IMG/VR virus record: IMGVR_UViG_2974512537_000001
Location: 17,077 to 81,076 of that record
DNA length: 64,000 nt
Direction: 5' to 3' (one strand)
Origin: a virus
Taxonomy: Duplodnaviria; Caudoviricetes
The notes beneath the pieces were generated by a model that searched no databases, had not been told where the DNA came from, and saw only the letters and a program-made list of their open reading frames with translations. Both the position numbers and the translations under genes were made by a program. Position 1 is the stretch's first letter. Every line of letters starts with the position of its first letter. Shown in pieces: positions 10,592-28,080 of the stretch.

Positions 10592-10593
10592 AA

Positions 10594-11123: not shown

Positions 11124-12107
11124 ATGACTGAACTTAAAGAATTAAAGGGCAATCAACTTTCAGTAACTGGTACTTTAGCTGAAAAATCACTTGAATTATC
11201 AACTGACCGTGATGGTAATGAAATTATTAAGGGATATATTCGTGTTCAAGTAGAACAAAACAATCGAGTAAACGTAGTTACTTTCAACGTATACAACCGC
11301 AAGTTCACTCGTAGTGGTTCTGAAAATAAATTGTTTGCTGGTTTTGTTACTGTTATGAATCAATACAAATCCTTACAGGACACTAACGGCAACAAAGACG
11401 AAGCAGACCGAGTTCAAATTATCGGTGATTTATCATACAACGTTTATTCATCTGATGGTGAAACCGTTCGTGAATCAAATCGTTTCCGTGCAACGACATG
11501 CCACCGTGTAAATGGTCAAGATTTAGAAGATGACACTTACGGTAGCATTCCGGCAGTTATTGAAAGCTATGACGAAGACCTTGACAAGGACGGAAATCCA
11601 ACTGGTTTATGGAAAGTTAAAGCATTCACTGTGGGTTATAATGGTCGAGTTGGTCGTGTAATGGACTTAAAGATTGCTAGTGAATTGGCGTCTGAAATGC
11701 AAGGTGCATTCCCAGAAGGAACTACCGGCGTACTTTACTACAATATTTTGAACTATGTTGTCGTTAAGAAGCAAAATGTTGACAATGATGGCGGTGGTTC
11801 ATTTGGTCAAATTCATGCAGTTGTTCAATCAAATTCTTATGTTCGTCAATTGTTAATCGTTGGTGGTGCACCGTTAGAAAATGATGAATTAGCACTTACG
11901 GAAGACCAAATCCAAAAGGCTCACGAGGAATTACGCAAACAACGTACAGAAGCAATTTCACGTGCAAACAACAAGCCAACTGCCCCTGTTAAAAACACTC
12001 AACCAGTTCGTCAAGGCGGATTTGGTAGCGCAGTAAAGAACGAATCAAACCCGTTTGCTAACAGTGGTGCAGGATTAGAAATTTCTGACGATGACTTGCC
12101 ATTCTAA
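11124..12107 (+). CDS. single-stranded DNA-binding protein
   Basis: OB-fold-like body and acidic tail ending DDDLPF; GGGAGGA SD before ATG 11124. Confidence 0.75.
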   Translation: MTELKELKGNQLSVTGTLAEKSLELSTDRDGNEIIKGYIRVQVEQNNRVNVVTFNVYNRKFTRSGSENKLFAGFVTVMNQYKSLQDTNGNKDEADRVQIIGDLSYNVYSSDGETVRESNRFRATTCHRVNGQDLEDDTYGSIPAVIESYDEDLDKDGNPTGLWKVKAFTVGYNGRVGRVMDLKIASELASEMQGAFPEGTTGVLYYNILNYVVVKKQNVDNDGGGSFGQIHAVVQSNSYVRQLLIVGGAPLENDELALTEDQIQKAHEELRKQRTEAISRANNKPTAPVKNTQPVRQGGFGSAVKNESNPFANSGAGLEISDDDLPF

Positions 12108-12167
12108 GATTTGATTGCGATGTTAATGTCCAAGCATAGTTTTTAAAAATAGGAGGAAAACACGATA

Positions 12168-13211
12168 ATGATTGATTTAACGAAGATTGAACCTAACAAA
12201 GTTTCTACTGACCCTTCAAGTTACAGCTTATTGCTGTACGGGCCGTCTAAGATTGGTAAGACGACCTTTGTGCAAGAACTGTTCCCTAAAGTGCTTCATA
12301 TCATGACTGAAAAGCGTTACGGCGCTTTAGATGGTGCGATGGTTCAATATGTGTCTAGCTGGAGTGAATTTAAACAAGTTCTATCGCAGTTAAAGCGTAA
12401 AGAAGTTCAAGAAATGTTTGACGCCATCTCAATTGACACAATCGAAAACCTGTACCGTTATGCAGATAAATTCACGGCTTCTCAATTTGACGAATTTAGT
12501 GTTGGTGATGGTAATGTTGGATATGGGCGTGACCATACACGCCTAAACGAAGTTTGGTTCCGTGGTTTGAAAGAATTAGAATCATTACCTTACACGAATA
12601 TCTTTGTTTCGCACTCAATTGAAAAGATTGTAAAAATGCCGTATATCAACTCTGCTGAATTTAATTCAATTCCTGACGCTGTCGTATCACAAGAAAGCGA
12701 TGGAACAGAAATGGTTGAATTTACAAAGATTGTTCCTGACTTGAAAGAAAAAGCATTGGGGCCGGTTACTAAGATGGTTGATAACGTATTGTACGCTGAA
12801 AACAACTTAGTAAACGGTAAAGAACAACGGGTATTACACTTACGTGGAACGCTTCAATATGAAGCTGGTACAACATTCAAAGGTGTTAAACCGATTATTC
12901 CATTCACTGCCGAATCGTATAAAGAAGAAGTTAAACGGGTTCTCGGTGGCAACTATGAAAAGACAACTGACAAGAAAGTCTTACACGCTGACACCAAGGA
13001 CGTTGAATATGACTTTGATGACTTGCTAGAAAAGACCAAAGAAGTCGCAATCTTGTTCCAAAAGAACAACGACATTAAGACTTTGACAACAATTGTTGAA
13101 AAGACCTTAGGTAAAGGTAACAAGGTTAACGATTTAAACGAGGGTCGTGTTGAAGACCTAGCAATCATCTTGGCAGACTTGACCGAAGCCGCAGAAAAGA
13201 AAGGATATTAA
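12168..13211 (+). CDS. AAA-family NTP-binding protein (Sak4-like)
   Basis: YGPSKIGKTT Walker A, ISIDTI Walker B, IFVSHS; adjacent to SSB. Confidence 0.75.
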   Translation: MIDLTKIEPNKVSTDPSSYSLLLYGPSKIGKTTFVQELFPKVLHIMTEKRYGALDGAMVQYVSSWSEFKQVLSQLKRKEVQEMFDAISIDTIENLYRYADKFTASQFDEFSVGDGNVGYGRDHTRLNEVWFRGLKELESLPYTNIFVSHSIEKIVKMPYINSAEFNSIPDAVVSQESDGTEMVEFTKIVPDLKEKALGPVTKMVDNVLYAENNLVNGKEQRVLHLRGTLQYEAGTTFKGVKPIIPFTAESYKEEVKRVLGGNYEKTTDKKVLHADTKDVEYDFDDLLEKTKEVAILFQKNNDIKTLTTIVEKTLGKGNKVNDLNEGRVEDLAIILADLTEAAEKKGY

Positions 13212-13217
13212 AAACTA

Positions 13218-14450
13218 ATGGCAACTTACACAGACAACAAAGGCAAAACGCATGAAATTGACGATATTGGGCTGGAAACAGCCTCTCGGTATAAGACTGA
13301 ATTACAACGTGAAAACGGACGGGCTAACTGGGGCAAAGTAGCCCGTTTGTTGCGACAAGATGGTTATGACGCAAAGCAATGCGAAGGGTTGCGACAACTG
13401 GTAAAGAAATATCAACGTAGAACTGGCGTATTAAAGTCATCTAAGGAACAGCGTTCCTTGGAATTAGACCACAAACGTAATGCTCTTGATAAAGAAATTG
13501 ATGAAATGTTGCTGGAAAAGCGTGAATTACAATTAATGCGGCGTGAATTTAATAAGAGTCGCCGTGACTATGCTGATATGGAATTATTCAAGCGTGACGT
13601 AAAGCGGTCATTAAAAGATGGCATTACAGTCGTTCCTAACGAACTGGATTACCCTGTTGTAAAACCGCTAAGTGACGGAAGCGTATTAATTGTTGCGTTG
13701 TCAGACCTCCATATTGGAGCTAAAGTTGATGTAGATGGTTACAAATATGATGAAGACATTGCTAAAGATAAATTATCTGAATATGCAGACAAGGTAATTC
13801 GATATGCTAGTTTTTCTAAGTTCGGTGCGATTTACATTGAGAACTTAGGCGATTCTATCGAAGGTGCCTACATGAGAAACAATCAATCATACGAAATTAC
13901 GATGAAGCTGTCTGAACAAATTAATACGGCGATTAAATTGGTTTCAGAATTTGTTGTCAATATCGCTAAGAACACTGGCATTCCAGTTATTTATTCGGGT
14001 ATCTTAGGCAATCACGACCGTGCCAACGGTAATAAAAAGGATAACTTGCCTGATGATGGCTTTTCAACAGTGCTGAATGAGGCCATTAAGCTGATTGCAG
14101 AACAAACTTCTTATGATATTACCGTAAAAGAGCCTGATAAAGTTACCGAAGACCATTTGAGTGTCAATGGAAACAATATCAAGTTCGTACACGGCGACCT
14201 TCATAACCTTGCTAAAGCTGAAACATTGGCAACGTCTTCACAATTCGACAGCATGTTATATGACGCAATTTTAGGTGGACACTTCCACAGTATGTCGATA
14301 CGTGAGGAATCTGGGCTAGTTATTCAATCTGGTAGCGTCATTGGCCCTACGAGTTATTCAGAACGACTGCACTATCGAGCCTCACGCTCACAAGTTATGT
14401 TAGATGTAAGTAGTGATGGAACGGTTACTCCGTTACCAGTTATTTTATAA
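13218..14450 (+). CDS. calcineurin-like metallophosphoesterase with N-terminal helical region
   Basis: SDLHIG, LGD, GNHD, HGD and GHFH motifs all present. Confidence 0.8.
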   Translation: MATYTDNKGKTHEIDDIGLETASRYKTELQRENGRANWGKVARLLRQDGYDAKQCEGLRQLVKKYQRRTGVLKSSKEQRSLELDHKRNALDKEIDEMLLEKRELQLMRREFNKSRRDYADMELFKRDVKRSLKDGITVVPNELDYPVVKPLSDGSVLIVALSDLHIGAKVDVDGYKYDEDIAKDKLSEYADKVIRYASFSKFGAIYIENLGDSIEGAYMRNNQSYEITMKLSEQINTAIKLVSEFVVNIAKNTGIPVIYSGILGNHDRANGNKKDNLPDDGFSTVLNEAIKLIAEQTSYDITVKEPDKVTEDHLSVNGNNIKFVHGDLHNLAKAETLATSSQFDSMLYDAILGGHFHSMSIREESGLVIQSGSVIGPTSYSERLHYRASRSQVMLDVSSDGTVTPLPVIL

Positions 14451-14489
14451 AAACTGATAGAACACAAAATAGAAAGAGGTATAAAAACT

Positions 14490-15227
14490 TTGGAAAATAA
14501 AAATTTAAGTTACAATCCAGAATCTGTTAGTCGAGTATTTAATTGGCATTGGTACAAAGACCAGATGACCGGCTGGACAAAATCCAGCTATGTCTTGCTG
14601 GTAATTGGTTGGCTGTTCCTATTATATGTTGGTCTTGGTCATGGAATTACTGGTTTGGGAGTAACTTCAACGATTGCCGGGTTGATTGGTTTTACTTGTA
14701 CGTTAAGTATCACGAATGGACGTCCTATCAACGGTGTTCTGGGCTTCGTTTCTGCGGCTATGCTGATTTACGTGGCATTAAAGACAGGGAACTTCTCTGA
14801 TATTGTTATGCAAGGCTTCTATATCTTCCTGTTGGACTTGCCGGTGCTATTTAATAAGACTTGGAATAATGGTAAAGATTTAGAACCTCGTAAGATGAAC
14901 TCCAAGTTCGCTTTGCAGACAGCATTAACTTTCGTTGGTTTCTTTATCGTGACATACGGTCTTGATACGGTTATCTTAACGAGTCCTCGTCCGTTTATTG
15001 ACGCATTTGCCGCTACTATCGGTCTTACTGGGGCAATCTTAACCGTTCGCCGTTTCCGTGCTTCTTACTACTTCTGGTTTGCACAAGGTCTTAGTTCAGT
15101 CGCATTGTGGTTGGTAACTGCTATGCAAGGAGAAGCTGTTTGGGTTCTGTTCTTTACCTACATGCTATATATTATGAACGACCTTGTAGCGTTCTTTGAC
15201 AGTAAGTGGTTTGCAAAGAAAAAATAA
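14490..15227 (+). CDS. pnuC: PnuC-family nucleoside/nicotinamide riboside transporter
   Basis: About seven TM helices; G.FSD..MQ.FY, DA....IG..GAIL, WF.Q....V.LW pattern. Confidence 0.8.
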   Translation: MENKNLSYNPESVSRVFNWHWYKDQMTGWTKSSYVLLVIGWLFLLYVGLGHGITGLGVTSTIAGLIGFTCTLSITNGRPINGVLGFVSAAMLIYVALKTGNFSDIVMQGFYIFLLDLPVLFNKTWNNGKDLEPRKMNSKFALQTALTFVGFFIVTYGLDTVILTSPRPFIDAFAATIGLTGAILTVRRFRASYYFWFAQGLSSVALWLVTAMQGEAVWVLFFTYMLYIMNDLVAFFDSKWFAKKK

Positions 15228-15305
15228 AAATTGAATAATTGTGGTTGTAAAACCTCCTTATCTGATGTATAATATAGTTACATTAAAGATGAGGAGGTTT
15301 TTTGT

Positions 15306-15821
15306 ATGGAAAAAGAAGTTTGGAAGCCAATATTGGGTTATCCTAATTATGAAGTATCTAGCCTTGGTAGGGTTAGGTCAATTACTAGAAAAGTTAAAAC
15401 AAGAGGAAACGGAACCAGAACCGTCAAGTCTAAAATAATCTCACAAGACACAACTGGAAGGTATCATATGGTGACGCTATACAAAAATGGCGTGCCAAAA
15501 AATGTATCTGTTCATAGACAAGTAGCTCTGGCTTTTATTGATAACCCAGACAATAAGGAAACTGTTGACCATATTGATAGAAATAAAGATAATAACAGGG
15601 CGTCCAATCTTAGGTGGGCGAGCAGGCTAGAACAAGAGAAAAACAAGACATTCCCACAAAGAGAAATATATGCAATCAAAGATAATAGAAAAATGAAATA
15701 TTCTGGGGTTAATGATTGTGCAAGAAGACTTGGACTTAGCGCCTCAAAAATAAGTGCTTGTTTGAGAGGTAGAAGAAATACACATGGTGGGTATCACTTT
15801 TGCGAGTGCAACAAGAAATAA
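15306..15821 (+). CDS. free-standing HNH homing endonuclease (NUMOD4-HNH-NUMOD1)
   Basis: EVWKPI.GYPNYEVSSLGRVRS; VHR.VA.AF, VDHIDRNK.NN...NLRW; C-terminal HTH. Confidence 0.9.
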   Translation: MEKEVWKPILGYPNYEVSSLGRVRSITRKVKTRGNGTRTVKSKIISQDTTGRYHMVTLYKNGVPKNVSVHRQVALAFIDNPDNKETVDHIDRNKDNNRASNLRWASRLEQEKNKTFPQREIYAIKDNRKMKYSGVNDCARRLGLSASKISACLRGRRNTHGGYHFCECNKK

Positions 15822-15914
15822 AAATAATTTAATTATGGGCTTGACTATAAGCACAAATCATGATATAATTACAGATGTAATAAGGATTTGAAAAAGAAAG
15901 GAAAAGTGATTGTG

Positions 15915-16256
15915 ATGGGTAATGAAGAAGAATATATTAGAGAGCTAGAACAACAGGTTGATGACCTTGAAGCTGAAAATGATTCACTTGGCACTGAGCT
16001 TGATAATAGCGAGATTGATAACCAAGAATTATCACGAGAATATGATTCTCTTGAACAAGACTATGATGATTTGTATAAGGAAAACGTCAAATTAAGAGAA
16101 AGGCTTGAAAACTCTAATGTACCTGAAATTATCAATGATATTCATTCCATGATTGGTAATGGTATTTCTTACACAGAATTTAAGAAGATTGCAGATATGT
16201 TGTCAATTAAGTATTCTATTAAGGAGCCAATATTTGGTTTAGATTATGGTGAATAA
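15915..16256 (+). CDS. acidic coiled-coil protein, paralog 1
   Basis: Heptad repeats; C-terminal IGNGI...FKKIADML...YSIK.PI.GLDY shared with the next gene. Confidence 0.7.
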   Translation: MGNEEEYIRELEQQVDDLEAENDSLGTELDNSEIDNQELSREYDSLEQDYDDLYKENVKLRERLENSNVPEIINDIHSMIGNGISYTEFKKIADMLSIKYSIKEPIFGLDYGE

Positions 16257-16327
16257 TACAGACGTTAACCGTGTTAAAATGTATTCGCAATGAGGATAAT
16301 GTTTGAAAAGAAAGGAAAGTGTTAAAA

Positions 16328-16678
16328 ATGACCGATAAAGAGCGAATTGTAAAGTTGGAACGCCAATTGGCTGACGCTACTGCTGACATTAAAATTTTAG
16401 AGGAAGAAAATGAAAGCCTCCAAAACGAAGTTGAAGACGTTGAAAAAGACAATCAAGCGTTGAGCGTCTGTTATGAACTTCTGGGGCAAGACTATGACGA
16501 CTTATACCGTGAATACGATGAATTAGCTAACGGTGATAATCGCACTGTACATGTAATTATTGATAAGATTCATGAACTAATTGGTAATGGTATTACGGCA
16601 GGTGATTTCAAACGTATTGCCGATATGCTGGCAACCGAATATTCTATTAAGGGGCCTATCTGCGGCCTAGATTATTAA
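16328..16678 (+). CDS. acidic coiled-coil protein, paralog 2
   Basis: Clear tandem paralog of 15915-16256. Confidence 0.7.
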   Translation: MTDKERIVKLERQLADATADIKILEEENESLQNEVEDVEKDNQALSVCYELLGQDYDDLYREYDELANGDNRTVHVIIDKIHELIGNGITAGDFKRIADMLATEYSIKGPICGLDY

Positions 16679-16691
16679 AGAGGTGGCTGAC

Positions 16692-16850
16692 ATGGAAGAC
16701 AGTAGGTTGGAATTAGCTCAACAGCTATGGTATTATCAAGACAGAGTTGCTGAACTAGAGGAACAATTAGATGAGCTTAAACTAGAAAACGATGACTTGC
16801 GTTATGAATTGTATGAATTAATGAAAGGTGATAAAAATGGAAAAAAATAA
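16692..16850 (+). CDS. 52 aa acidic coiled-coil protein (not in ORF track)
   Basis: Hand-translated MEDSRLELAQQLWYYQDRVAELEEQLDELKLENDDLRYEL...; GAGGTG SD. Confidence 0.6.
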   Translation: MEDSRLELAQQLWYYQDRVAELEEQLDELKLENDDLRYELYELMKGDKNGKK

Positions 16851-17154
16851 AAAACAGATTCGAGTAGATTTATATACTAAGAAAAACTGCGGTCAATGTC
16901 GAATGACAAAGAAACTTCTCGACCACTACGATATTGCTTACTTTGAAACCGACATTTCAGCCTTGTCAGAAGATGAAATTAACAACTTAAAGGACGAGGG
17001 ATTCTGGCAGGCTCCTATTGTTTCATTTCGTTATTTGGAAACTGGCAAGAGTGCTCGGTGGTCACAGACTGGTATGTGGGGAGGCTTCCAACCAGACGCA
17101 ATTAAAAAGTTAGCAGTCCTATATGGTACTAAACGTAATAAGGCGGTGGAATAA
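16837..17154 (+). CDS. nrdH: NrdH-like glutaredoxin
   Basis: LYTKKNCGQC, QAPIV, WGGFQPDAI. Confidence 0.85.
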   Translation: MEKNKKQIRVDLYTKKNCGQCRMTKKLLDHYDIAYFETDISALSEDEINNLKDEGFWQAPIVSFRYLETGKSARWSQTGMWGGFQPDAIKKLAVLYGTKRNKAVE

Positions 17155-17156
17155 TA

Positions 17157-17486
17157 ATGAGCGTGAAAGATTATTTGTTAGATAATTTTGATGATATTGC
17201 CGGCGATGGCGACTTTGTTGTTGTGTTAAACAAGCCGGGATATAACAAACTAATTTCTGTAATCATTGCCAAACAAGACGCCGATACGTTTATGAAAGAC
17301 ATTGAGGATTTTACAGACGATGATTTGGTCTTCAATGATAATACGGCACTTCTGGCGATTGCACGGCTGACAGATGGTAGTTCGTCAGTTGATTCTATTA
17401 CTGACGATTATCAAGATTTCATTGAATATGGAACGTTGCCATCAATTTACGCCTTGATGAAGTTCAGCGAAGATTTTGGAAATTGA
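17157..17486 (+). CDS. acidic hypothetical protein
   Basis: Coupled ORF, very Asp-rich. Confidence 0.65.
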   Translation: MSVKDYLLDNFDDIAGDGDFVVVLNKPGYNKLISVIIAKQDADTFMKDIEDFTDDDLVFNDNTALLAIARLTDGSSSVDSITDDYQDFIEYGTLPSIYALMKFSEDFGN

Positions 17487-17505
17487 GATAAAATAGGGGG
17501 TAGCA

Positions 17506-18120
17506 ATGAATAAAAAGAAGTTATTACTTGGAGCACTTATGATTTCGCTTGCAGTTGTTTTAGGAGGCTGTCAATTTGCAGATAGCTGGTTATCGGACTT
17601 TAAGCAACAAACCTATGGATTGCCTATGACGGTACAAACATATGACTACAATGCACAAAAAATTGACACTATACACGGGAAATCATTGTCGATTGCACGA
17701 GATAAAGAGTTTGACCAAGTAAATGAAAATGGCGAAACATCTAAGGCTTCATCTGTGCTTAATATTACATTAGGCGGAAAACAAATCACTCACGTAGGCA
17801 GTAGTTTAATCGCCTACCAAGATGGATTGACTAACGTACTTGACAAATATCCAAAGCGATATAACGTTACTAACAATAATAGTTCAGTTCCGTTTATGAA
17901 CCGCTTTGTAAACAAGTATCAGAACTATTTTACAGGTTCTAGTAAGGTTGTTCTTATTCGCTCACAAGCCGGCCAGCCAATTGCTACTTTCGCTGGTGAT
18001 ACAGTTAGTTATAAGTCAACAGAGGTTCCTAGTAGCACGTCACTTTTGATTGATGGCAAGCGACTATTTATCTACCGTTGCGATTATACTATCTACACAA
18101 CCAACACATTACTAAAGTAA
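17506..18120 (+). CDS. lipoprotein (DUF5052-like)
   Basis: Basic N-terminus, hydrophobic core, lipobox LGGC. Confidence 0.7.
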   Translation: MNKKKLLLGALMISLAVVLGGCQFADSWLSDFKQQTYGLPMTVQTYDYNAQKIDTIHGKSLSIARDKEFDQVNENGETSKASSVLNITLGGKQITHVGSSLIAYQDGLTNVLDKYPKRYNVTNNNSSVPFMNRFVNKYQNYFTGSSKVVLIRSQAGQPIATFAGDTVSYKSTEVPSSTSLLIDGKRLFIYRCDYTIYTTNTLLK

Positions 18121-18186
18121 CTGGTCATCAACAGGAATGCGAATAAGGCAGAACACGGACAAACTTAGTAAACAGGAGGAAATACA

Positions 18187-18381
18187 ATGTACCAATACAA
18201 AGATGGGCCTTTGGGTATCACGATTATTTTAGGACACGTTACTAGTGTCTTCTATAATAAATTTGCAGATACATTTGATGTTTATTTAACGGATAATGAC
18301 GAACCAAATGAAATTCCAAATAAGTTTTATGACGACTTTATGAATAATCTTAATTTATATATTCAAAGTCAGGTCAAGTAA
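18187..18381 (+). CDS. hypothetical protein
   Basis: AGGAGG SD. Confidence 0.65.
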   Translation: MYQYKDGPLGITIILGHVTSVFYNKFADTFDVYLTDNDEPNEIPNKFYDDFMNNLNLYIQSQVK

Positions 18382-18400
18382 AAGGAAAGAGGCAATTAAT

Positions 18401-18640
18401 ATGGTTAATAAAGATGAAGCATGTATGGCTATGCCGGACACCGAGCATTCAGACCGTGAAAAGTTAGCTCGTAGCCGTGAAATTAGACATAATAAACAAG
18501 ACGAAGTTCTATCTAAGATGGGCTACACTTGGAACTCGAACGTTAAGGCTTGGTGGTCAGACAACTTAGAGTCATTACCGCTACTTAAAGATAGCGAAGC
18601 ACGTGCTCTAGCAGATGAAATTATTGATTTTGTAATTTGA
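18401..18640 (+). CDS. hypothetical protein
   Basis: GAGG SD, in operon. Confidence 0.6.
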   Translation: MVNKDEACMAMPDTEHSDREKLARSREIRHNKQDEVLSKMGYTWNSNVKAWWSDNLESLPLLKDSEARALADEIIDFVI

Positions 18641-18732
18641 TAACTATAAAGCTTGACAAAGCATATCAGAAATGGTATGCTTTTTACATAGAAAGAAGGA
18701 ATAAAAATGAAAATGTTTGGTGGTTATGAACA

Positions 18733-18921
18733 GTGAACTGGTTTAATAGAAATAAAAAATGCCCGTATTGCACTCAAACAATGCCTTTCATGAATAGAAA
18801 AGGGGTTGAGTTGAGAATTGTATATGGGAACAAACTATTTACAAGTGACGAAAGTAAGCAGGTTAATATCACTATTAACTATTGCCCGATGTGTGGCAGA
18901 AAGCTGAGAGGGGTTAAATGA
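18733..18921 (+). CDS. Zn-ribbon protein
   Basis: CPYC...INYCPMCGRKL; GTG start overlaps the stop of a 9-codon uORF. Confidence 0.6.
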   Translation: MNWFNRNKKCPYCTQTMPFMNRKGVELRIVYGNKLFTSDESKQVNITINYCPMCGRKLRGVK

Positions 18922-18960
18922 TGGAAAATGAAATCTATATTTTGGATAGGAAGTGAAATC

Positions 18961-19188
18961 ATGGAGCCGTTTACCACAGCATGGTATTTAGTGTTACTAG
19001 GAGTGTTTGTTGCATTCGTGTTGGTTGTCATTATTTCCATTGGAATTATGACATCGGAAACAGAAGACGGCGAGCCACTATTCCTAGCTGGGTATTTGTT
19101 ATTGTTTAGCCTTGGAGCGATTTTGGGCTGGGGCGTAGCCGGAGGATTATTAGCTATGTTTGAACATTTTATACTACGCATGGTATAA
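18961..19188 (+). CDS. small membrane protein
   Basis: Two TM helices. Confidence 0.6.
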   Translation: MEPFTTAWYLVLLGVFVAFVLVVIISIGIMTSETEDGEPLFLAGYLLLFSLGAILGWGVAGGLLAMFEHFILRMV

Positions 19189-19205
19189 AAAATGTATTTT
19201 TTAGC

Positions 19206-19234
19206 TTGACAAAAACTGTTTCTGGACGTATAAT
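19206..19234 (+). promoter_or_regulatory. consensus promoter for mazF
   Basis: TTGACA(19206)-17 nt-TATAAT(19229). Confidence 0.8.
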
Positions 19235-19267
19235 GTAATTACAAAATATCAAGGAGGAATTATTACG

Positions 19268-19630
19268 ATGTTAGTAAATAATGAGAGAATTGAACGAGGA
19301 AATGTATACTACGCAGATTTGGGCGAACGGCAAAACAGCCGTGACGCTGTACAGAGAGGACGCCGCCCCGTGTTGGTTGTGTCAAATAACTTGGCAAACA
19401 AATACTCACCAGCAATTACGATTGTGCCGTTGACTACTCGCAACAAGCACCATTTACCAACTCATGTCGAATTTGAATTACCAAATCACGGTGAAATGGT
19501 TTCAAACACGGCGCTTTGTGAGCAAGTTAGAACGATTAATGTTGACCAATTATATTTCAAGATTGGTGTTTTGGACGATGATATTATGAAAGAAGTCAAT
19601 AAGTGTTTGGGGGTGGCATTATCGCTGTGA
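19268..19630 (+). CDS. mazF: MazF/PemK-family endoribonuclease, no adjacent antitoxin
   Basis: RGNVYYADLG...Q.G.RPVLVVSN..ANKYSP.ITIVPLTT, ALCEQVRTI; catalytic Arg and Thr equivalents of B. subtilis EndoA retained. Confidence 0.9.
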   Translation: MLVNNERIERGNVYYADLGERQNSRDAVQRGRRPVLVVSNNLANKYSPAITIVPLTTRNKHHLPTHVEFELPNHGEMVSNTALCEQVRTINVDQLYFKIGVLDDDIMKEVNKCLGVALSL

Positions 19631-19956
19631 AAGTTTATCTTACTTATTATAAAGCAAGTGATGGTGTTAGAGTTGCATATGCCTGTGCGGGCGATTACTG
19701 GGTGAACTTCTATTTTCGGAGATTCGATAAGAGCAACACTGAAAAAGATGTCCTTAATTATATCATGAGCTTTGCAGACAAGAGTAATGAGAAAGTCTTC
19801 ATCATCTCAAATAATCAAAAGATGATTAGAATTATGCAGAAAATGGAAGATACAGACAACGTGTCATTCATTGGTAGATATGAAAGCGAACAGACGCGTG
19901 ACATTTTCGTCAAGCTTCAAGTAGCACTGACAAAAAAGGAGAATTATAATGATTAA
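19627..19956 (+). CDS. hypothetical protein coupled to mazF
   Basis: GTG start overlaps the mazF TGA (GTGA). Confidence 0.65.
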   Translation: MKVYLTYYKASDGVRVAYACAGDYWVNFYFRRFDKSNTEKDVLNYIMSFADKSNEKVFIISNNQKMIRIMQKMEDTDNVSFIGRYESEQTRDIFVKLQVALTKKENYND

Positions 19957-20482
19957 TCGGAACGAAATCTTGGCTTATTCCAGAAGTGAGCATTTTAAGA
20001 AAAGAGCACGTCAGAGATTTGGGATTTCCAAGTCGCTTATGCAACCTTGGTTGCTTAATATTGTTTCCCACGGTATTTTCAGCAAGACGAATCAAGACGG
20101 TATTTGGTTCTTAGACGTTGATGAAATTCGTGTCGTGGTTGACGTTCACAACAGAAGCGTAGTTACCACATACTCGCTTCACGATATTGTATGGATTTCT
20201 AAACGGGCCGGCGATGAGCTAATAAATAAGGGGGTGATTGATGAAGTCATTGATGGACTAACTGGGGCATTCGATGGTATGCTTCGTAAACAAAATAAGA
20301 AAATCAATAGTATCATTAAAGCATTAGATGAACTTCAAGATGTTCATAATGTCACTAAGCGCAAAGATTATTACCTAGAGCAAGAAGATAAGATTTGTGA
20401 AATTGAAAAAGCATTAACTGCTGAATTGAATAACAAGCGAGAATTAATTAAAATTCAAGCAAATGTACTTTGTAAAGAATAA
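19949..20482 (+). CDS. putative RelE-like/DUF4258-like nuclease domain plus C-terminal coiled coil
   Basis: SEHFKKRARQRFGI...IRVVVD...VVTTY pattern, recognised by eye. Confidence 0.45.
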   Translation: MINRNEILAYSRSEHFKKRARQRFGISKSLMQPWLLNIVSHGIFSKTNQDGIWFLDVDEIRVVVDVHNRSVVTTYSLHDIVWISKRAGDELINKGVIDEVIDGLTGAFDGMLRKQNKKINSIIKALDELQDVHNVTKRKDYYLEQEDKICEIEKALTAELNNKRELIKIQANVLCKE

Positions 20483-20559
20483 GTAATTCCGCTGTAACGG
20501 TTTTGAAACAATTATATGTTATAATATGGTTATCAAATAAAGAAAGAGGTTTTTTATTT

Positions 20560-21249
20560 ATGAAAAAAGCATTGGTAGCAAGTTCAATGGTACTAGGTTT
20601 AGCATTCGGAGTTCAAGTGGCCAACGCAGACACTTACACTGTCCAAGCTGGAGATACTGTTAGTAAAATTGCTTACCAGCACGGGACGACTGTTAATGAT
20701 ATTGTTGCACAGAACCAATTGAGCAACCCAAACTTGATTTATGTTGGCGACAAGTTGGAAATCAGCGCACCGGCAGTTAACTACCAAACTTATACGCAAG
20801 CACCTGTTAAGGAGCAGGCACAAACGCCGGTCGAGCAACCTAAAGCGACACAGGTGCAACAACAGCAAACACAACCAGTTCAATCAGCACAACGACAAGT
20901 ACAGAAGCCACAAGTGCAACAACCACAGGAACAACAACAAGTACAACAACCACAAAGTAATCAGAGTTCTGTTATGTCTAAAACTTCTGGTCAGTTGAGT
21001 CAAGCGGAAATTAATCAAGTGGCACAGGAAATGAGTTCACGTACTGGCGAATCGTCAGCAACATGGTCGATGATTATTAATCGTGAATCCCGTGGCAATG
21101 TCAATATTTCAAATTCGCAAGGGAGCGGAGCTTTTGGCTTATTCCAAAACATGCACATTAGTAGCGGTAACGTTGGTACACAGGTTGATAAAGCAGTTCA
21201 GCTCTATCATGCACAAGGAATCCAAGCTTGGCAACAAACAGCATATTAA
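20560..21249 (+). CDS. secreted LysM + lysozyme-like (SLT/SceD/Apf-type) protein
   Basis: Signal peptide ending ANA-D; LysM YTVQAGDTVSKIA; Q/P-rich linker; IINRES.G.....GAFGLFQ. Confidence 0.8.
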   Translation: MKKALVASSMVLGLAFGVQVANADTYTVQAGDTVSKIAYQHGTTVNDIVAQNQLSNPNLIYVGDKLEISAPAVNYQTYTQAPVKEQAQTPVEQPKATQVQQQQTQPVQSAQRQVQKPQVQQPQEQQQVQQPQSNQSSVMSKTSGQLSQAEINQVAQEMSSRTGESSATWSMIINRESRGNVNISNSQGSGAFGLFQNMHISSGNVGTQVDKAVQLYHAQGIQAWQQTAY

Positions 21250-21254
21250 AAATT

Positions 21255-21278
21255 AAGGCGCTTAGGCGCCTTTTTTAT
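21255..21278 (+). terminator. intrinsic terminator
   Basis: AAGGCGC-TTAG-GCGCCTT followed by a T run. Confidence 0.85.
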
Positions 21279-21339
21279 TTGCATTTTGAAGCCGATTATG
21301 GTAGAATTAGGTTGTAAATTAAAAAAGGAATGATGGAAA

Positions 21340-21702
21340 ATGGAAAATGATTTGTTTACAGAATTACGTGGGTCGGCCAAAAGAACAATTGAAGAAAAAG
21401 GCAAGCCTGACTACTGGGACAAACTGGTTGAATTTATGCGAAGCTCTGCAAAAAATGGTCATTATTGTTTGGAGCTTCAAGGGCGGTTGTATAATGACCA
21501 AGAACCGAGCGATAGTTCAGCAAAGTTATTGAAAGATATTCTCAAAAATCAAGAGTTGTATGCGGCCAACTTGCGAGAGAATAGACTGGAAATAGAGATA
21601 ACTACGCAGGTCAATCTCTTGCCATCTAGCCAATTTATTGACCGAGGCCATTATCTTACAGAAGTGCATTTGAAAATTGATTGGGGCGATGATAATGAGT
21701 GA
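21340..21702 (+). CDS. hypothetical protein
   Basis: ORF behind a promoter-like element. Confidence 0.65.
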   Translation: MENDLFTELRGSAKRTIEEKGKPDYWDKLVEFMRSSAKNGHYCLELQGRLYNDQEPSDSSAKLLKDILKNQELYAANLRENRLEIEITTQVNLLPSSQFIDRGHYLTEVHLKIDWGDDNE

Positions 21703-22009
21703 ATTTATGAATGCTAAAGAGGCACAGGAATTAGTTAAAAAGAATAAGCAGAAGCGTATTGAATATTATCTTGATAGAATTGGCCAAGACAGGAAAGCCA
21801 ACATGATTAAAAGAGCGATTGAAAAAGCTGTGGTTGATGGAGAAAATTGTGCTTATGTAAAATTCCACACCAAAACAGACGATGATAGAATCACAGCTAT
21901 TGAGGAATACTTTACTAAACTCGGTTACGACATTTTCTTTGATAGAAAGTGGTGTCGAGTCAAACTATTTAAAAGAAATTTCCCGAAGCCACCAAAAATT
22001 AGCCGCTAA
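21695..22009 (+). CDS. hypothetical protein
   Basis: ATG overlaps the upstream gene end. Confidence 0.6.
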   Translation: MSEFMNAKEAQELVKKNKQKRIEYYLDRIGQDRKANMIKRAIEKAVVDGENCAYVKFHTKTDDDRITAIEEYFTKLGYDIFFDRKWCRVKLFKRNFPKPPKISR

Positions 22010-22250
22010 AATAGTAATTCTGAAAAAATAGTCTTGTGAGAGTTCGTTAGAGTGATTTTAAAAAATCTCATGGCTTATTATACTAGGCACCCAGTAAAAT
22101 CGCTTAGAATCCATCTGACAGGCGTATATTGGATTATAGCGATTATTTGGTCAAAAATGACGAGTAAAATCCCGATTTTATTCAAAAATTGTTGACTTTT
22201 GGATAAAAGGTGATATAATAGAATCATAATAAGGAAATGGAGGAATGTAA

Positions 22251-22514
22251 ATGAAACGTTATTTGGCGAAAGTAAATTATAATACGCCAGATGGAAAGCA
22301 TGTGACTACGTTGTACAAGTTGTTGGAGGCAGAGAACGAAATTGACGCTCAATTAAAAGTAATTTTCGACAAGACTTCTAGCGGTGAATTAAATCTTTAC
22401 GACCAATACTTTGCAGATGGCATGTATGAAAAAGAGATTGTCGGGGTTTACGAAATTGATGAAAATGGCGAAGCCTTTGAAGATTGGCCTGAATCGAAAG
22501 TTGGTGATGAATAA
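22251..22514 (+). CDS. hypothetical protein
   Basis: GGAGGA SD; TTGACT-17-TATAAT promoter at about 22192. Confidence 0.7.
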   Translation: MKRYLAKVNYNTPDGKHVTTLYKLLEAENEIDAQLKVIFDKTSSGELNLYDQYFADGMYEKEIVGVYEIDENGEAFEDWPESKVGDE

Positions 22515-22810
22515 TGGCTTTAGAAATTAAGCTATCGCCATCTTGGGTGATTATTGGTAACGATTATTCGCCAAGCGGAGTAATCTTGTTACACAAAGTA
22601 AGGTCAAAGAGCAGTTCAAAAGTTCGTGAAGAACGCACGTACCACTCGGATTTGGCATATGCGCTAAAGTATTATGCTAAAGTGGCGATTGCTAAGAAAG
22701 AGAAGAAAGTCAAAAGCATTAGAGATTATATTGATGAATACGAAGTGATTTTCAATGAGGGAGTTGAACGAATTGAAGAAGCAATTAAAGCACAAGACAC
22801 CGACAAATAA
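22514..22810 (+). CDS. hypothetical protein
   Basis: TAATG coupling. Confidence 0.65.
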   Translation: MALEIKLSPSWVIIGNDYSPSGVILLHKVRSKSSSKVREERTYHSDLAYALKYYAKVAIAKKEKKVKSIRDYIDEYEVIFNEGVERIEEAIKAQDTDK

Positions 22811-23114
22811 CATCTATAAACGGTATTACGCCGTCTTTCACGGCGACCAGCCTCGTAGCCGCTGGAACCACGCCCACGGTAATCACAAGACTCCGACTGG
22901 CGAGAGCTTTGCCACGTTCTATAATAGCCCTAAATTTAGTGCAATTGCCGTTGATTTAGGACAAGGATTTTCAGTTGCGGGTACGGGAACACCAGTTAAG
23001 TCTTACGCTGAAAAAGATGTCCTTGCCATTTATGCAGTATTACAAGCTGTCGGTTTCAATGATGATGAAGTCAGCCACATTATTGATGAACATATGAAGA
23101 AATTAAAATCATAA
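22755..23114 (+). CDS. hypothetical protein (start uncertain)
   Basis: ORF ending at a terminator; 56 nt overlap makes the start doubtful. Confidence 0.5.
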   Translation: MRELNELKKQLKHKTPTNNIYKRYYAVFHGDQPRSRWNHAHGNHKTPTGESFATFYNSPKFSAIAVDLGQGFSVAGTGTPVKSYAEKDVLAIYAVLQAVGFNDDEVSHIIDEHMKKLKS

Positions 23115-23121
23115 TTATTAC

Positions 23122-23149
23122 AAACAGTCGTTTTTACGACTGTTTTTTA
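23122..23149 (+). terminator. intrinsic terminator
   Basis: AAACAGTCG-TTTTTA-CGACTGTTT followed by T run. Confidence 0.8.
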
Positions 23150-23209
23150 TTTAGGCTTGCAAAATTAAGCAACATGTGCTATTATAATAGTATCGAAGGA
23201 GGAATTATT

Positions 23210-24598
23210 ATGAACAAAGAGGAATTAATTAAATACGGTTACGGGAATCTTCACGGCCACACAGACTTATCAAGTAACCTACGCCTGTTAGATAGTTCAA
23301 TCACAGTTAAGGAAATGTTGGATTACGCTAAAGAGATTGGATTAAAGGCGGTATCGTTCACAGGACACGAAGCATTGAGTGACCATATCAAGGCGGAACG
23401 CTATTACCATGCCAATAAAGATAAGTTCAAGGACGTTAAACTTGTTCTCGGTAACGAAATCTACTTGGTCAAAAAAGGCGATATGGAAAAGGCAGAGGAA
23501 GCTGGCGAACCTTTTAAGTTCAACCATTTCCTGCTGAATGCCTTAGATAAGAAAGGCCACGAGTTCTTGCAGAAGCAAAGCTCATTGGCGTGGTCACATT
23601 ACCACGTATATCACGGTATGGAACGTGTTCCAAGCTTCTACGGCGAAATCGAAGCACTTATGAAAAGCGGTGATTACAAAGGCCATGTCATTGCCAGCAC
23701 AGCTTGTCTTGGAGGATATGTAGCACAGGAACTTCTCGCTTACGAAGATGATAATGACAAAATTCATCTCGACAAGGTAAAAGGCATGATTAACTGGTCG
23801 ATTAAAGTGTTCGGTAAAGATAACTTCTTTCTTGAACTCATGCCTAGCCATCACAAAGAACAGATTGTCGTCAACAACTGGTTGAAACGGATTAGTGAAT
23901 CACTAGGCGTTCCGTTTATTATTACAACCGATTCTCATTACTTGAATGAAGCTCAACGTCCAGTACACAGTGCTTTATTGCGCTCACGTAATCAAGACCG
24001 AGATTTATCAGTATACGATACAGCGCATTTGTTCAGTGTAGAGGAACTATTTGAGTTCTTTGATGATGATACATTGACAAAAGCGTTCACCGCACTACAT
24101 TCGATTATTGACCGTGTTCAAGATTATTCATTGGAACATACGCCAATTGTTCCAAAAGGACGTATTCCAGAGTTTGATAAGCCAACTTACGAAGACTTCT
24201 ACCACGGTGAAGATTTACCAAACATTAAGGTTATGGTTGAAAGTGAACACGAAACTGATGGCTATTTGATGAAGTTAGCTCTCGGTGGTCTTAAAAAACA
24301 CGGGCTACTGGATAAAAATGATTATCTAAAGCGCCTTGATTTGGAAGTTGGAGAACTTGTCAAAATCACTGAAAATATCGGCCAACCAATGAGCTCTTAC
24401 TTTATTGCACAGCATGACTTTGTTGATATTATGTGGAGCCAAAGCTTAGTTGGCCCCGGCCGTGGTAGTTCATCGTGCTGGTTGTTAAACTATTTGATTG
24501 GATTGACACAAGTTGACGCTTTGAAGTACGACTTGCCGCACTACCGTTTCCTTTCAGCAGAACGGGTTACTGAAAATACTGCTTCTAACTATCCAGAT
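23210..24598 (+). CDS. dnaE: DNA polymerase III alpha (DnaE-type), exon 1
   Basis: PHP domain (HGHT, GHE, TACLGG, TDSHY), GPGRGSS, ends FLSAER...NYPD. Confidence 0.9.
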
Positions 24599-25608
24599 GA
24601 ACTTTAATCAACGTCTGGCTTGGTGGTGACACCTCGAAATAATTCCTAGTGAACGATTAACAATCGGTGTGAGAATAGCTTAAAATGTATCTGGTAGGAA
24701 ATGACCAGTTAATATTCTTGCTAACAGGGAAACCCTTAAAGGGCAATCGCTGTGCTAAATTTAATGTCGTGTGTATATCGTCTTATAGGAGGTAAGATAT
24801 GAGAGGGATATATGCACATGTGAATAAAATCAATGGGCGTGTGTTCTATGTTGGTCAACAAAGGGTCAACAATAACAGAGCATATGATTTTAAAACCCAG
24901 AGAAATGATGAGTATAAAAAGTATGTTGAAAAAATTGGTGTTGAAAATGTCGATGTAGTTTGGCTATACGAGTCTGCTAACTATAACGAAAATCTTTTTA
25001 CAGCAGAGTGGGTATACCAAAACAAATATTATCAAAACGGGTTCTTAAAAACAAAAGAGCTTATATTTAATGGTAAAAATAATCCAAATTATAATAACCA
25101 TTGGAATGAAAAACAACGCAAGCTCATGTCTGAAAAGATGAAAAATCGTTATGATGGTAAGCGTAATCCAAACTACGGAAACAGATGGGACGATGAAAAG
25201 AGAGAAAAAGCTAGAGAAAGAGCTAAAAAACAGGGCGAGTTTTCTGGCACTCACAATCCTAAAGCTTCTCCATGTGTTCTTTATGGCCCAAATGGATTTG
25301 AAAAGAAATTTGAGCTATTAAAAGAAATGTCTAAATGGGTATCTGATAATATAATTCATGGAGAACTAAAGGATATTACGTCAATCAATCGTAGCCATCA
25401 CATTAAAAAAGAGTATAAAGTATTAGATAATTGGAGCTACAAAACATACACACGACATTAATAAATGTGAAACGACCATCGAAAACACACATCAATGATG
25501 TGGAAGTGAGTAGAGTACACCTTAGCTTGCGGGCTATGTGTGGAAGCGCTAGGCTCTGACGAATAGTCAGATGAAGATATGGTCTACCCTCATGGCAACA
25601 TGAGAGTG
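24599..25608 (+). mobile_element. group I intron in dnaE
   Basis: Exon CCAGAU pairs with GUCUGG (24613-18) with a U.G splice pair; P7 GACCA(25474)/UGGUC(25580); terminal G 25608; splicing restores PD|IDTD in frame. Confidence 0.9.
24799..25461 (+). CDS. intron-encoded GIY-YIG homing endonuclease with NUMOD3-like repeats
   Basis: GIY...YVG; G.xNPNY repeats; lies in a loop closed by a perfect 16-bp inverted repeat (24761-76 / 25446-61). Confidence 0.88.
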   Translation: MRGIYAHVNKINGRVFYVGQQRVNNNRAYDFKTQRNDEYKKYVEKIGVENVDVVWLYESANYNENLFTAEWVYQNKYYQNGFLKTKELIFNGKNNPNYNNHWNEKQRKLMSEKMKNRYDGKRNPNYGNRWDDEKREKARERAKKQGEFSGTHNPKASPCVLYGPNGFEKKFELLKEMSKWVSDNIIHGELKDITSINRSHHIKKEYKVLDNWSYKTYTRH

Positions 25609-28080
25609 ATTGATACAGATACAGAAGCCTCGAAGCGTGAAAAGATTATTAACAAAGTTAAAGAAGTATATGGAAAAGATAAGGTTCTCAACTTTGCAAC
25701 TTTCACGACAATTGGCACACGTGCGGCCATTAAGTATGCTGGCCGTGGCTTAGGGATTGATAATAACGAAGTTAATTATATTGTTTCCTTGCTACCGGCA
25801 GACGGACATGACGAGTGGCCGATTACTGACGCCTTGCTTGGTAACGATAAAAAAGACAGAAAACCATCTAATAAACTGTTGTCAGAAGTGAACAAGTACC
25901 CTAATATGAAAGAAACGATTCTTGGTTTGTTCGGATTGGTTGTCGGCCGTAGCGAACATGCTTCTGGTGTGTTGGTTGCTAACAATGGCTATACAGAACA
26001 TAATGCCGCAATGTTCACACCAAACGGAATTGCCGTTACTCAATTTGACGCTGACGACTCTGAATATGCCGGCATGATTAAGTTCGATTTCTTGTCATTA
26101 TCAGCTCTGGATAAAGTTCATTGTGCAATTGATATGCTGATTAAAGATGGTCTAGTTGATGAACAAGGCACGTTGCGTGAAATCTACATGAAATATTTTG
26201 GCCCAGAAGCACTGGACATGACTAATCATGAAATGTACAAAATGCTGTTTGACGGGAAGGTCATTGACGCTTTTGAATTTAGTTCGTCAGTTGGTTATAA
26301 GACGTTGCGTAAGCTAAACGCTCGTGATTATATGGCTTTGGTATCTGCCAATGGTCTTATGCGACTGACTGGTGGTGACAGCGATGAACTAGCGCTTGAC
26401 CGTTTTATTCGCTATCAGAACAACCCCGGCGACTGGGATAGGGACATGAACAATGCTGGACTTAATGACAACGAAAAGCAATTAATGCACGAACTGCTTG
26501 ATGATTATAAAGGGGTCAACAACTCACAGGAACGCTTAATGCAAATGGTGTTAAAGATTGCTGACTACTCATTACAAGAGGCAAACAAGTTGCGAAAGTC
26601 AATTGCTAAAAAGGACAAAAAGAAGCAAGAGGAACAACACGTATTCTTTTTGAAAAAAGCTAAGGAACACGGTCTTAGAGATGAGTTTGCAAAATACGTC
26701 TGGGACGAACAAATTGCTATTCAATCGGGGTACGCGTTTAGCGTCAGCCACTCATTGCCATATACGTTGATTTTGATGGTTGAAATGAATATCTGCTACC
26801 GATTCGACCCAATTTATTGGCAAACCGCTGTATTATCGGTCAATGCCAAGACGTATGGTGATGAAATGGCAAATCCAGACTACAATAAACTCGCAACAGC
26901 GATTGGTCAACTTCCAAAAGGATTAGTGACCTATCCAGATATTAACCGTAGCGAAGTAGGGTTCGTCCCTAAGATTACCGAACAGTCTAAAAATATTCTG
27001 CTGGGACTGAATGCCATTTCTGGTATCGGTACTAATGAAATTGAAAGTATTATGAACAATCGCCCTTATAGTTCATTAGATGATTTCATGGAAAAGAATA
27101 AAGAAGTCTTCTCAATTAAGAAGATGATTCTCTTAATTAAATCCGGGGCGTTCAATTGCTTTGAAAGTGACCGCAGAAAGCTCATGATTGATTATATTTC
27201 CAAAGTAACAGAACCAAAAGCAAAACTAACCACGGTTCAGATTAAAAAGATTAAAGATAAGATTCCAGATGAATATGAGCTACAAAAGAATGCTTATCTA
27301 ATGAAAAAGCATGTCAAGGACAATGACGTTAAACTTGATAGTCCGATTGGTCGCTGGTTCCTCAATACCGTTGAACCTTTAATCGTAGAATACGAGAGCG
27401 GATTAAAGAAGACCCCAGAGGATAGCTTATGGAGCATTGATGATGAGCGTCTTGTCATTGATACAAAGCGTTATAACAAATGGTTTAATGTGTTTGCAAA
27501 ACCATTAAAAGAGTGGCTGAAAACTCCAGAGGCGGTTGAAATTGAGCGGAAAAAACGTTGTGCTGAATTATGGACTAAGGAATGCAAAGGGAATCCAGAA
27601 CACTGGGCTTTTGAGGCGTTAAACTTCTACCCTGAAAAGCATGAACTTGAAGTGTCAACGCTTGGAACAATGCTCAATTATCAGGCGTTTAACGATTTAG
27701 AACCAGAACCAAAAGTCATTAAAGAAGTGACTAGCCGGAACGGACGCAAGTTCTCAATCTATGAAAACCATATTATTGCAGGAACTATTGTAGCAAAGAA
27801 TAATATTAAATCAACGGTTAGCCTATTAACACCAGATGGGTTAGCAATTGTGTCCTTAGGACGTCAATTGTACGCAAAACTTGGTAAAAAAGAAATGGTC
27901 GGCCAAGGTAAGAATCGTCATTGTGTTTCAGACAGTTGGCTGGAAAGAGGTAATAAGTTGGTAGTAACCGGCTATCGTCAGCAAGATTCGTTTAGATTAA
28001 GACGCGACCATAACCTTAGCACAACGGCAATGTTGATTAACGGATATGGCAGTAAAGTAAGATTGGTTTTCGACAAATAA
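25609..28080 (+). CDS. dnaE: DNA polymerase III alpha (DnaE-type), exon 2
   Basis: IDTD, SEHASGV, KFDFL.L, GYAFS.SHS..Y, HhH motif L..I.GIG, OB domain. Confidence 0.9.
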   Translation: MDTDTEASKREKIINKVKEVYGKDKVLNFATFTTIGTRAAIKYAGRGLGIDNNEVNYIVSLLPADGHDEWPITDALLGNDKKDRKPSNKLLSEVNKYPNMKETILGLFGLVVGRSEHASGVLVANNGYTEHNAAMFTPNGIAVTQFDADDSEYAGMIKFDFLSLSALDKVHCAIDMLIKDGLVDEQGTLREIYMKYFGPEALDMTNHEMYKMLFDGKVIDAFEFSSSVGYKTLRKLNARDYMALVSANGLMRLTGGDSDELALDRFIRYQNNPGDWDRDMNNAGLNDNEKQLMHELLDDYKGVNNSQERLMQMVLKIADYSLQEANKLRKSIAKKDKKKQEEQHVFFLKKAKEHGLRDEFAKYVWDEQIAIQSGYAFSVSHSLPYTLILMVEMNICYRFDPIYWQTAVLSVNAKTYGDEMANPDYNKLATAIGQLPKGLVTYPDINRSEVGFVPKITEQSKNILLGLNAISGIGTNEIESIMNNRPYSSLDDFMEKNKEVFSIKKMILLIKSGAFNCFESDRRKLMIDYISKVTEPKAKLTTVQIKKIKDKIPDEYELQKNAYLMKKHVKDNDVKLDSPIGRWFLNTVEPLIVEYESGLKKTPEDSLWSIDDERLVIDTKRYNKWFNVFAKPLKEWLKTPEAVEIERKKRCAELWTKECKGNPEHWAFEALNFYPEKHELEVSTLGTMLNYQAFNDLEPEPKVIKEVTSRNGRKFSIYENHIIAGTIVAKNNIKSTVSLLTPDGLAIVSLGRQLYAKLGKKEMVGQGKNRHCVSDSWLERGNKLVVTGYRQQDSFRLRRDHNLSTTAMLINGYGSKVRLVFDK

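Follow-up and report, generated by a model that had tools for sequence, protein, structure and literature searches.

MazF toxins have been studied as bacterial switches of stress and defence, and annotations of phage genomes label them accessory 'growth inhibitors'. The Bacillus subtilis enzyme, EndoA, cuts RNA at U/ACAUA only (PMC11780869), and the MazFs of Listeria and Staphylococcus aureus prefer the same site (PMC11780869; bioRxiv 10.64898/2026.08.06.743204). We analysed a mazF gene that lies in a window of 64 kb, meaning the whole stretch of DNA under study (positions 17,077 to 81,076 of the 81,076-bp virus record IMGVR_UViG_2974512537_000001), together with a set of predicted hairpins that are followed on the transcript by the hexamer UACAUA (TACATA in the DNA). 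The source is a virulent Lactobacillus plantarum siphophage of the Tybeckvirinae, whose closest relatives are phages P1 and P2; phage Maenad is the name on one protein cluster of the mazF cassette. Our main reading is that the phage MazF trims the phage's own messages at these hairpin-UACAUA marks, a mechanism to which, taken as a whole, we give a probability of about 0.48.

Three phage systems come close to such a scheme. RegB of T4 is likewise a sequence-specific phage RNase with sites in the intergenic and translation-initiation regions of its own transcripts, but it belongs to an unrelated protein family, acts at GGAG and inactivates early mRNAs at the ribosome-binding site, whereas the sites described here precede the ribosome-binding site, follow putatively protective hairpins and lie mostly in the late operon. 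In T7, some 10 or more intergenic sites split the transcripts and hairpins stabilise the resulting 3' ends; there, however, a host double-strand RNase, RNase III, cuts within the stem, while here a single-strand hexamer stands beside the stem and the candidate enzyme is phage-encoded. The arbitrium phages SPbeta and phi3T resemble the present case in that the RNA of a Bacillota phage is tied to MazF sites, but they encode inhibitors of MazF (the AimX and YosL antitoxins) rather than MazF itself, and are reported to be enriched in UACAU inside genes. In the literature, we found no published description of a phage-encoded MazF processing system of this kind.

The gene and its expression signals are the following:

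19206-19234, plus strand: sigma-A-type promoter TTGACA-17-TATAAT of the mazF operon, matching the consensus at 12 of 12 positions and ranking top in a 4-kb scan
19252-19257, plus strand: Shine-Dalgarno sequence AGGAGG, 10 nt 5' of the ATG, read from the sequence
19268-19630, plus strand: mazF, a MazF/PemK-family endoribonuclease of 120 aa with Pfam, PHROG and PDB matches

An earlier note on this DNA, made from the letters alone, had described an intact MazF with its own consensus promoter and Shine-Dalgarno sequence, and this description is borne out. The PemK domain is full length: residues 9-116 align with positions 1-107 of the 109 positions of Pfam PemK_toxin (PF02452; E 1.7e-22, 80.1 bits for a cut-off of 23.1 bits), PHROG 1936 ('MazF-like growth inhibitor') matches at 2.4e-39, and the nearest solved structures are those of S. 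aureus MazF and B. subtilis EndoA (E ~1e-19). Early expression of mazF is suggested by its strong promoter, which is of the host sigma-A type. Homologues at 60-95% identity form a single clade of at least 15 clusters, with no broken copies, and all members that could be placed belong either to these phages or to phage-like contigs. Identity drops from 60% within this clade to about 45% for all other proteins, and a search of metagenome-assembled genome contigs returned relatives at 37-43% identity only. Throughout the clade, R33-P34, T56 and the motifs LPTHVE and EQxRT are conserved, and these are shared with EndoA and with the S. aureus and Listeria enzymes. In the alignment, R33-P34 corresponds to EndoA R25-P26 and T56 to EndoA T48, residues whose roles (R25 being the catalytic arginine) follow the citation in PMC8634880. 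Across 16 sequences R33 and P34 do not vary, and at least 90% of 22 sequences have a threonine at position 56. Judged by these residues, the phage MazF looks catalytically competent. It is set apart from the bacterial enzymes by its place in a virulent phage, its phage-only clade, its consensus sigma-A-type promoter and the absence of an upstream MazE.

The distribution of the hexamer is strongly biased. The window contains 24 copies of TACATA for 42.9 expected, and the sense strand of the 78 genes (56.8 kb) contains none, for 8.9 expected after synonymous-codon shuffling (z -3.3; 0 of 300 shuffles reached zero) and 6-9 as the overall range of expectation. In contrast, 15 sense copies are found in 7.6 kb of intergenic DNA, where the frequency of the hexamer matches that of AGGAGG, so that the earlier claim of a word recurring in non-coding positions and absent from sense coding sequence stands. 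Inside genes, eight copies are antisense. Neither the antisense copy nor the one-letter neighbours of TACATA, nor the pentamer with C, G or T as its next letter, are depleted. Over four Tybeckvirinae genomes, and counting artefacts of open reading frame (ORF) calling, TACATA is second among 3618 hexamers in strand-specific depletion, and none of the other ACA-containing words stands out. Many other hexamers are absent too, but they are of the restriction type and missing from both strands, whereas TACATA is depleted on the sense strand only. DNA-level restriction avoidance was considered as a cause of the TACATA depletion and rejected, because the antisense copy is not depleted.

The earlier note had proposed UACAUA as an extended site of this MazF. 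No extension has to be inferred, since UACAUA is already the strict published site of the EndoA/MazF family of Bacillota.

The intergenic copies are linked to hairpins. In the window, 14 of the 15 sites lie 0-4 nt 3' of a hairpin of -8 to -16 kcal/mol that lacks a U-tract:

18658-18690, plus strand: hairpin-TACATA within the promoter TTGACA-17-TATGCT (18653-18681), two genes 5' of mazF
29388-29411, minus strand: 7-bp hairpin, 1 nt, UACAUA (folding free energy, dG, -11.4), between an ORF ending at 29419 and an ORF starting at 29355
40302-40324, minus strand: hairpin, 1 nt, UACAUA (dG -12.0) at the junction of the Dit and tail protein genes, with orthologues
42147-42172, minus strand: hairpin, 0 nt, UACAUA (dG -15.6) at the tape measure/Dit junction
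48532-48563, minus strand: hairpin, 2 nt, UACAUA (dG -15.0) at the major tail protein/chaperone junction
50821-50842, minus strand: hairpin, 1 nt, UACAUA fused to the GGAGG of the next gene
51344-51369, minus strand: hairpin, 2 nt, UACAUA (dG -15.3) directly 3' of the major capsid gene
57177-57220, minus strand: long-loop hairpin, 1 nt, UACAUA between tRNA-Arg and the large terminase gene, conserved in P1, 8014-B2 and Lenus
57371-57410, minus strand: structured element, 4 nt, UACAUA upstream of tRNA-Arg
58486-58530, minus strand: structured element, 2 nt, UACAUA, ending 4 nt before tRNA-Asn
58664-58697, minus strand: hairpin, 3 nt, UACAUA in the non-coding RNA/tRNA region
58715-58743, minus strand: 8-bp hairpin, 1 nt, UACAUA after an ORF ending at 58748
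59941-59966, minus strand: hairpin, 2 nt, UACAUA near the head of the late operon, conserved in P1, 8014-B2, Lenus and SA-C12
61504-61529, plus strand: hairpin-TACATA overlapping a TTGACT promoter-like site

At 12 of 16 sense sites of the whole genome, the fold of the 32 nt upstream of the hexamer ranks no higher than the 5th percentile among random segments, compared with 0 of 14 antisense sites. Among 48 hairpin sites of four phages, 42 have a spacer of 0-2 nt and 30 have a ribosome-binding site within the next 0-16 nt; stems have a median length of 8 bp, and the median probability that the hexamer is unpaired is 0.64. The hairpin-linked sites are all co-oriented with transcription, in blocks of opposite orientation. 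Orthologous junctions keep the element with different stem sequences and preserved pairing, as seen at the capsid, connector, major tail protein, tape measure/Dit and Dit/tail protein junctions and at the one preceding the recombinase/integrase-like gene. Thus, the ORF at 29355 has a P1 counterpart annotated as recombinase/integrase, and the orthologues of the 29388 site in P1, 8014-B2, Lenus and SA-C12 have differing stems, while the 42147 element shows compensatory stem changes in P1, 8014-B2 and Lenus. The co-orientation of the elements within oppositely oriented blocks and the covariation of their stems point to a role of hairpin-TACATA at the RNA level. The layout is conserved in P1, 8014-B2, Lenus and SA-C12, all of which carry the mazF cassette, and SA-C12 retains the sites with L. 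brevis as its recorded host. The orthologue of the 18658 element stands directly before mazF in 8014-B2 and Lenus, and in P1 before gp50, the 44-aa gene that precedes mazF. Such a layout is what a processing site leaving a hairpin-protected 3' end would be expected to look like.

The mechanism that we propose would run as follows. A MazF/EndoA-type endoribonuclease, made from a consensus host-type promoter and possibly early in infection, would cut single-stranded U^ACAUA. Reading frames would be immune, the hexamer having been purged from the sense strand of all coding sequences, and about 14 copies would have been retained at gene junctions, in 5' leaders and at tRNA flanks, 0-4 nt after a stable hairpin. 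Cuts at these places would divide the long transcripts into units, the 3' end of each being a hairpin with a tail of 1-5 nt that resists 3' exonucleases, and the 5' end being an ACAUA leader with a 5'-OH, most often close upstream of the following ribosome-binding site. The enzyme would incidentally cut host or competitor RNAs in which UACAUA is unprotected. The reading presumes that the phage MazF is specific for UACAUA, that it is the cutter rather than a host enzyme, and that cutting benefits the phage. Its parts can be graded separately: that some MazF-type nuclease acts at the sites, be it of phage or host origin, is likely, and that this enzyme is the phage's own MazF is plausible. More tentatively, the Tybeckvirinae may have a self-contained mRNA maturation system, in which a domesticated MazF devoid of antitoxin would work on 14-22 hairpin-UACAUA marks per genome, release tRNAs and degrade host and rival-phage RNA; coding sequences free of sites would then protect the phage from a host MazF as well as from its own. 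If the mechanism is correct, a virulent phage has reused a toxin as an enzyme of gene expression and arranged its transcriptome around a six-letter site. This would be a Gram-positive counterpart of processing by T4 RegB and T7 RNase III, and would account for the frequent presence of MazF in lytic Lactobacillus phages.

The question arises as to whether the elements have anything to do with MazF. They might instead be attenuators, late start sites, or sites for an RNA- or DNA-binding phage regulator, MazF being an accessory toxin. At least four elements overlap promoters of the form TTGACA-17-(-10), such that transcription would start inside TACATA, and the mazF promoters of some relatives have no TACATA. 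However, the hairpins lack a U-tract, covarying stems point to RNA, and a promoter role leaves the avoidance in coding sequences unexplained. Moreover, the one strand-specific intergenic hexamer of the phage would coincide with the published MazF site by chance in about 1 of 4096 cases. A promoter function of the late TACATA copies was itself examined and rejected, as they have no -35 element and lack the T at -7 of the -10 hexamer. A transcription start at 50821, where GGAGG directly follows the motif, would cost the message its ribosome-binding site, and the TACATAGGAGG layout of this element, kept in P1, 8014-B2, Lenus and SA-C12, argues against a -10 role of TACATA. We regard elements unrelated to MazF as quite improbable.

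RNA libraries bear on the same choice. The data are Logan contigs from relatives at about 90-97% identity, and true 5' or 3' ends cannot be read from such contigs. None of the listed contigs, from four runs and three studies, covers 48512-48564, which contains the 48532 element; around it, contigs end at 48393-48511 and begin at 48565-48572. The listed contigs also stop short of the 50821, 51344 and 58715 elements, at several of these elements without loose ends, and near 58715 the contigs of four runs start at 58753-58833. One contig, 48568-50798, coincides with a predicted unit, and in run X15 the depth of the capsid contig exceeds that of the next unit about fivefold. As a sign of cleavage these breaks are a weak hint; breaks and depth steps fit termination, as invoked when the elements are taken as unrelated to MazF, or a hairpin-related loss of coverage, as well as they fit processing.

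Returning to trimming by the phage MazF, several observations weigh against it. LP65, a virulent myophage of L. plantarum with no PemK match in its whole record, has two sense UACAUA in its coding sequences for 12.6 (Markov model) or 23.8 (synonymous shuffle) expected, and 37 antisense copies for 33.5 expected. The virulent L. plantarum phage phiJL-1, also devoid of mazF, has no sense copy for 3.9-5.2 expected. In the temperate, mazF-less Sha1, the sense coding hexamer is not depleted under the Markov model. Since LP65 and phiJL-1 both avoid sense UACAUA, the avoidance in coding sequences cannot be credited to the phage enzyme, and a UACAUA-specific pressure at the RNA level, of non-phage source, must exist; a MazF-type enzyme of the host may exert the selection and might even do the cutting. 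A few hairpin-TACATA sites are also found in Sha1 and LP65 despite their lack of mazF, and Bacchae, which does have mazF, has few intergenic sites. An orphan chromosomal PemK/MazF is reported in the L. plantarum group (PMC3602190, PMC3519753). On the side of the protein, identity to the MazFs listed as EndoA/NdoA or S. aureus MazF is 38-42%, the beta1-beta2 loop is three residues longer than that of EndoA, and the substrate-binding residues G18 and E20 of EndoA are not kept, being aligned with N23 and R25. Because of the longer loop and the changed G18/E20 positions, the specificity of the phage MazF is unproven and cannot be read from its sequence, although a conserved aspartate that follows, D26, might substitute for the lost loop residues. 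Finally, a stem that abuts the U could hinder rather than help access to the hexamer, and the contig breaks could be coverage or assembly effects of the hairpins in the relatives.

Many of these points converge on a different scenario, in which an L. plantarum MazF-type enzyme cutting U^ACAUA has shaped the genomes and cuts the sites, the elements being buffered points at which an activated host toxin could cut without harm. The phage MazF would then have another role or specificity, such as host shut-off, exclusion of competitors or titration of a host regulator. This scenario accounts for the sense-strand, hexamer-specific avoidance in LP65 and phiJL-1, and the loop of the phage protein, unlike that of EndoA, is in line with it. 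An orphan PemK/MazF of 130 aa from L. pentosus KCA1 and a homologue of MazF from WCFS1 are listed in the literature, orphan chromosomal mazF genes are known in enterococci, and interplay between host MazF and phage RNA is established for SPbeta and phi3T. In Sha1, in addition, the Dit and tail-protein genes are closely preceded by a hairpin, followed by a U-run and TACATA (L017:19004 and 20848), at the same junctions as in the Tybeckvirinae. However, the genus Lactobacillus is reported to be without canonical MazF (Lactiplantibacillus is not mentioned there), a search of L. plantarum plasmids gave no EndoA-like MazF at E <= 1e-8, and dense intergenic enrichment is confined to a subfamily that always carries mazF. 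We consider the host enzyme an unlikely explanation of the whole pattern.

The earlier note would give up its reading if relatives lacking mazF kept the motif pattern, and this is partly so: avoidance in coding sequences is shared with the mazF-less LP65 and phiJL-1, whereas dense hairpin-linked intergenic sites, 14-22 per genome, occur only in the mazF-bearing Tybeckvirinae. Bacchae, a Harbinvirus whose MazF belongs to another clade, adds a finding at the level of the pentamer: beyond the hexamer, UACAU itself is scarce, being present 37 times for 69.9 expected (P 1e-5), a depletion not seen in its mazF-less cousin LP65, which suggests that phage MazFs do shape the genomes that encode them. 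Avoidance in mazF-less phages, for its part, suggests that L. plantarum phages in general are under selection by UACAUA-specific cleavage, and such selection bears on phage resistance in food fermentations. Two further observations were made in these comparison phages. An ORF-poor region of LP65 (L013:255-3264, minus strand) contains repeated boxes resembling GGAG-TACATA-G, and at the MazF locus of Bacchae (L014:1486-2078) a very acidic 62-aa ORF lies directly upstream, a possible MazE-like inhibitor.

The remaining question concerns an antitoxin. Genes neighbouring mazF gave no match to antitoxin families in Pfam, PHROGs, NCBIfam or PADLOC. The gene 5' of mazF varies by lineage: here it encodes a membrane protein, P1 has a 44-aa ORF at this place, 8014-B2 and Lenus have unrelated ORFs, and metagenomic relatives have a homing endonuclease. 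The locus thus departs from the type II mazEF arrangement, in which the antitoxin is adjacent and upstream. Downstream, on the other hand, the operon continues with a conserved cassette:

19627-19956, plus strand: 109-aa ORF coupled to mazF, with a GTG start and a GTGA overlap with the mazF stop (PHROG 14545)
19949-20482, plus strand: 177-aa ORF, third gene of the cassette, overlapping the preceding ORF (PHROG 5083)
20503-21272, plus strand: LysM/transglycosylase gene and intrinsic terminator, from the ORF list, the P1 annotation and a terminator scan

The operon ends at the terminator, at 21255-21272. The order mazF, 109-116-aa ORF, 177-aa ORF and LysM gene is kept in every relative examined, and the 109-116-aa ORF adjoins mazF in P1, P2, Gut-P1, 8014-B2, Lenus and metagenomic relatives. 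The label 'orphan', given to this MazF in the earlier note, consequently needs a caveat: no antitoxin family is found upstream, but a conserved downstream ORF is translationally coupled to the toxin gene. We regard this 109-aa ORF as a candidate inhibitor or partner of MazF. Together with mazF, and possibly with the 177-aa ORF, it could form a toxin-inhibitor module of reversed order that times or restrains MazF, or acts in superinfection exclusion, in which case MazF would not truly be an orphan. The GTGA overlap, a three-gene synteny that is strict in all relatives while the upstream genes vary, and a 109-aa family found solely beside these phage MazFs speak for such a module. Nevertheless, the protein has no similarity to antitoxin families, and its predicted fold is RNase H-like rather than ribbon-helix-helix, AbrB or any other known MazE-type fold, so that we hold the module to be rather unlikely. 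The AlphaFold2 model, of moderate confidence (mean predicted local distance difference test, pLDDT, 75.5), is a beta-beta-beta-alpha-beta-alpha-beta-alpha domain, in agreement with the core topology of RNase H-like nucleases, with weak Foldseek matches to RNase H and integrase cores (E ~1e-3; query TM-score, TMq, 0.46-0.58). Its strand 1 has no Asp at the RNase H-like catalytic position, and the invariant residue of that strand is Y4.

The 177-aa protein has no Pfam match. Its AlphaFold2 model (pLDDT 66) consists of a low-confidence N-terminal alpha/beta domain and a long C-terminal coiled-coil hairpin. Homologues fall into 25 clusters, those with a name or from long contigs being phages, and a search of viral contigs returned P1 and 8014-B2 only. 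The N-terminal part contains the motif H-x3-R-x2-QR-F-G-I, which is reminiscent of small RNase-toxin-like domains. In the 8014-B2 lineage, the only clear in-gene sense UACAUA sits in this 177-aa gene of the mazF operon (8014-B2 record position 46114; L024:4219), where it could be an autoregulatory cut site.

The genes of the window are organised in four blocks:

183-8450, minus strand: minus-strand arm
9649-28080, plus strand: block containing mazF, with P1 counterparts including an exonuclease, a Sak4-like annealing protein and a DNA polymerase
28118-59707, minus strand: late operon
from about 60.4 kb, plus strand: plus-strand arm

At the gathering threshold, Rfam detected nothing beyond tRNAs in the window, among them a fifth tRNA at 58165-58237 (minus strand, 45 bits) that ARAGORN did not report. 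In the RNA-library contigs of relatives, about 594 nt at 57468-58063 are swapped for 26 other letters, and the flank of tRNA-Asn (58408-58482) is rearranged; by these two changes, the tRNA/non-coding RNA region varies between strains.

As for the restriction-type words, those absent or strongly depleted on both strands in the window and in P1, 8014-B2 and Lenus comprise GATC-containing hexamers, GATATC, TCTAGA, GCTAGC, ATGCAT, CAGCTG, GAATTC and TTCGAA, as well as CTGAAG/CTTCAG, CTCAAG/CTTGAG, GCAGC/GCTGC, GGACC/GGTCC, CCWGG and GGATG. This depletion suggests that these phages avoid many host restriction systems.

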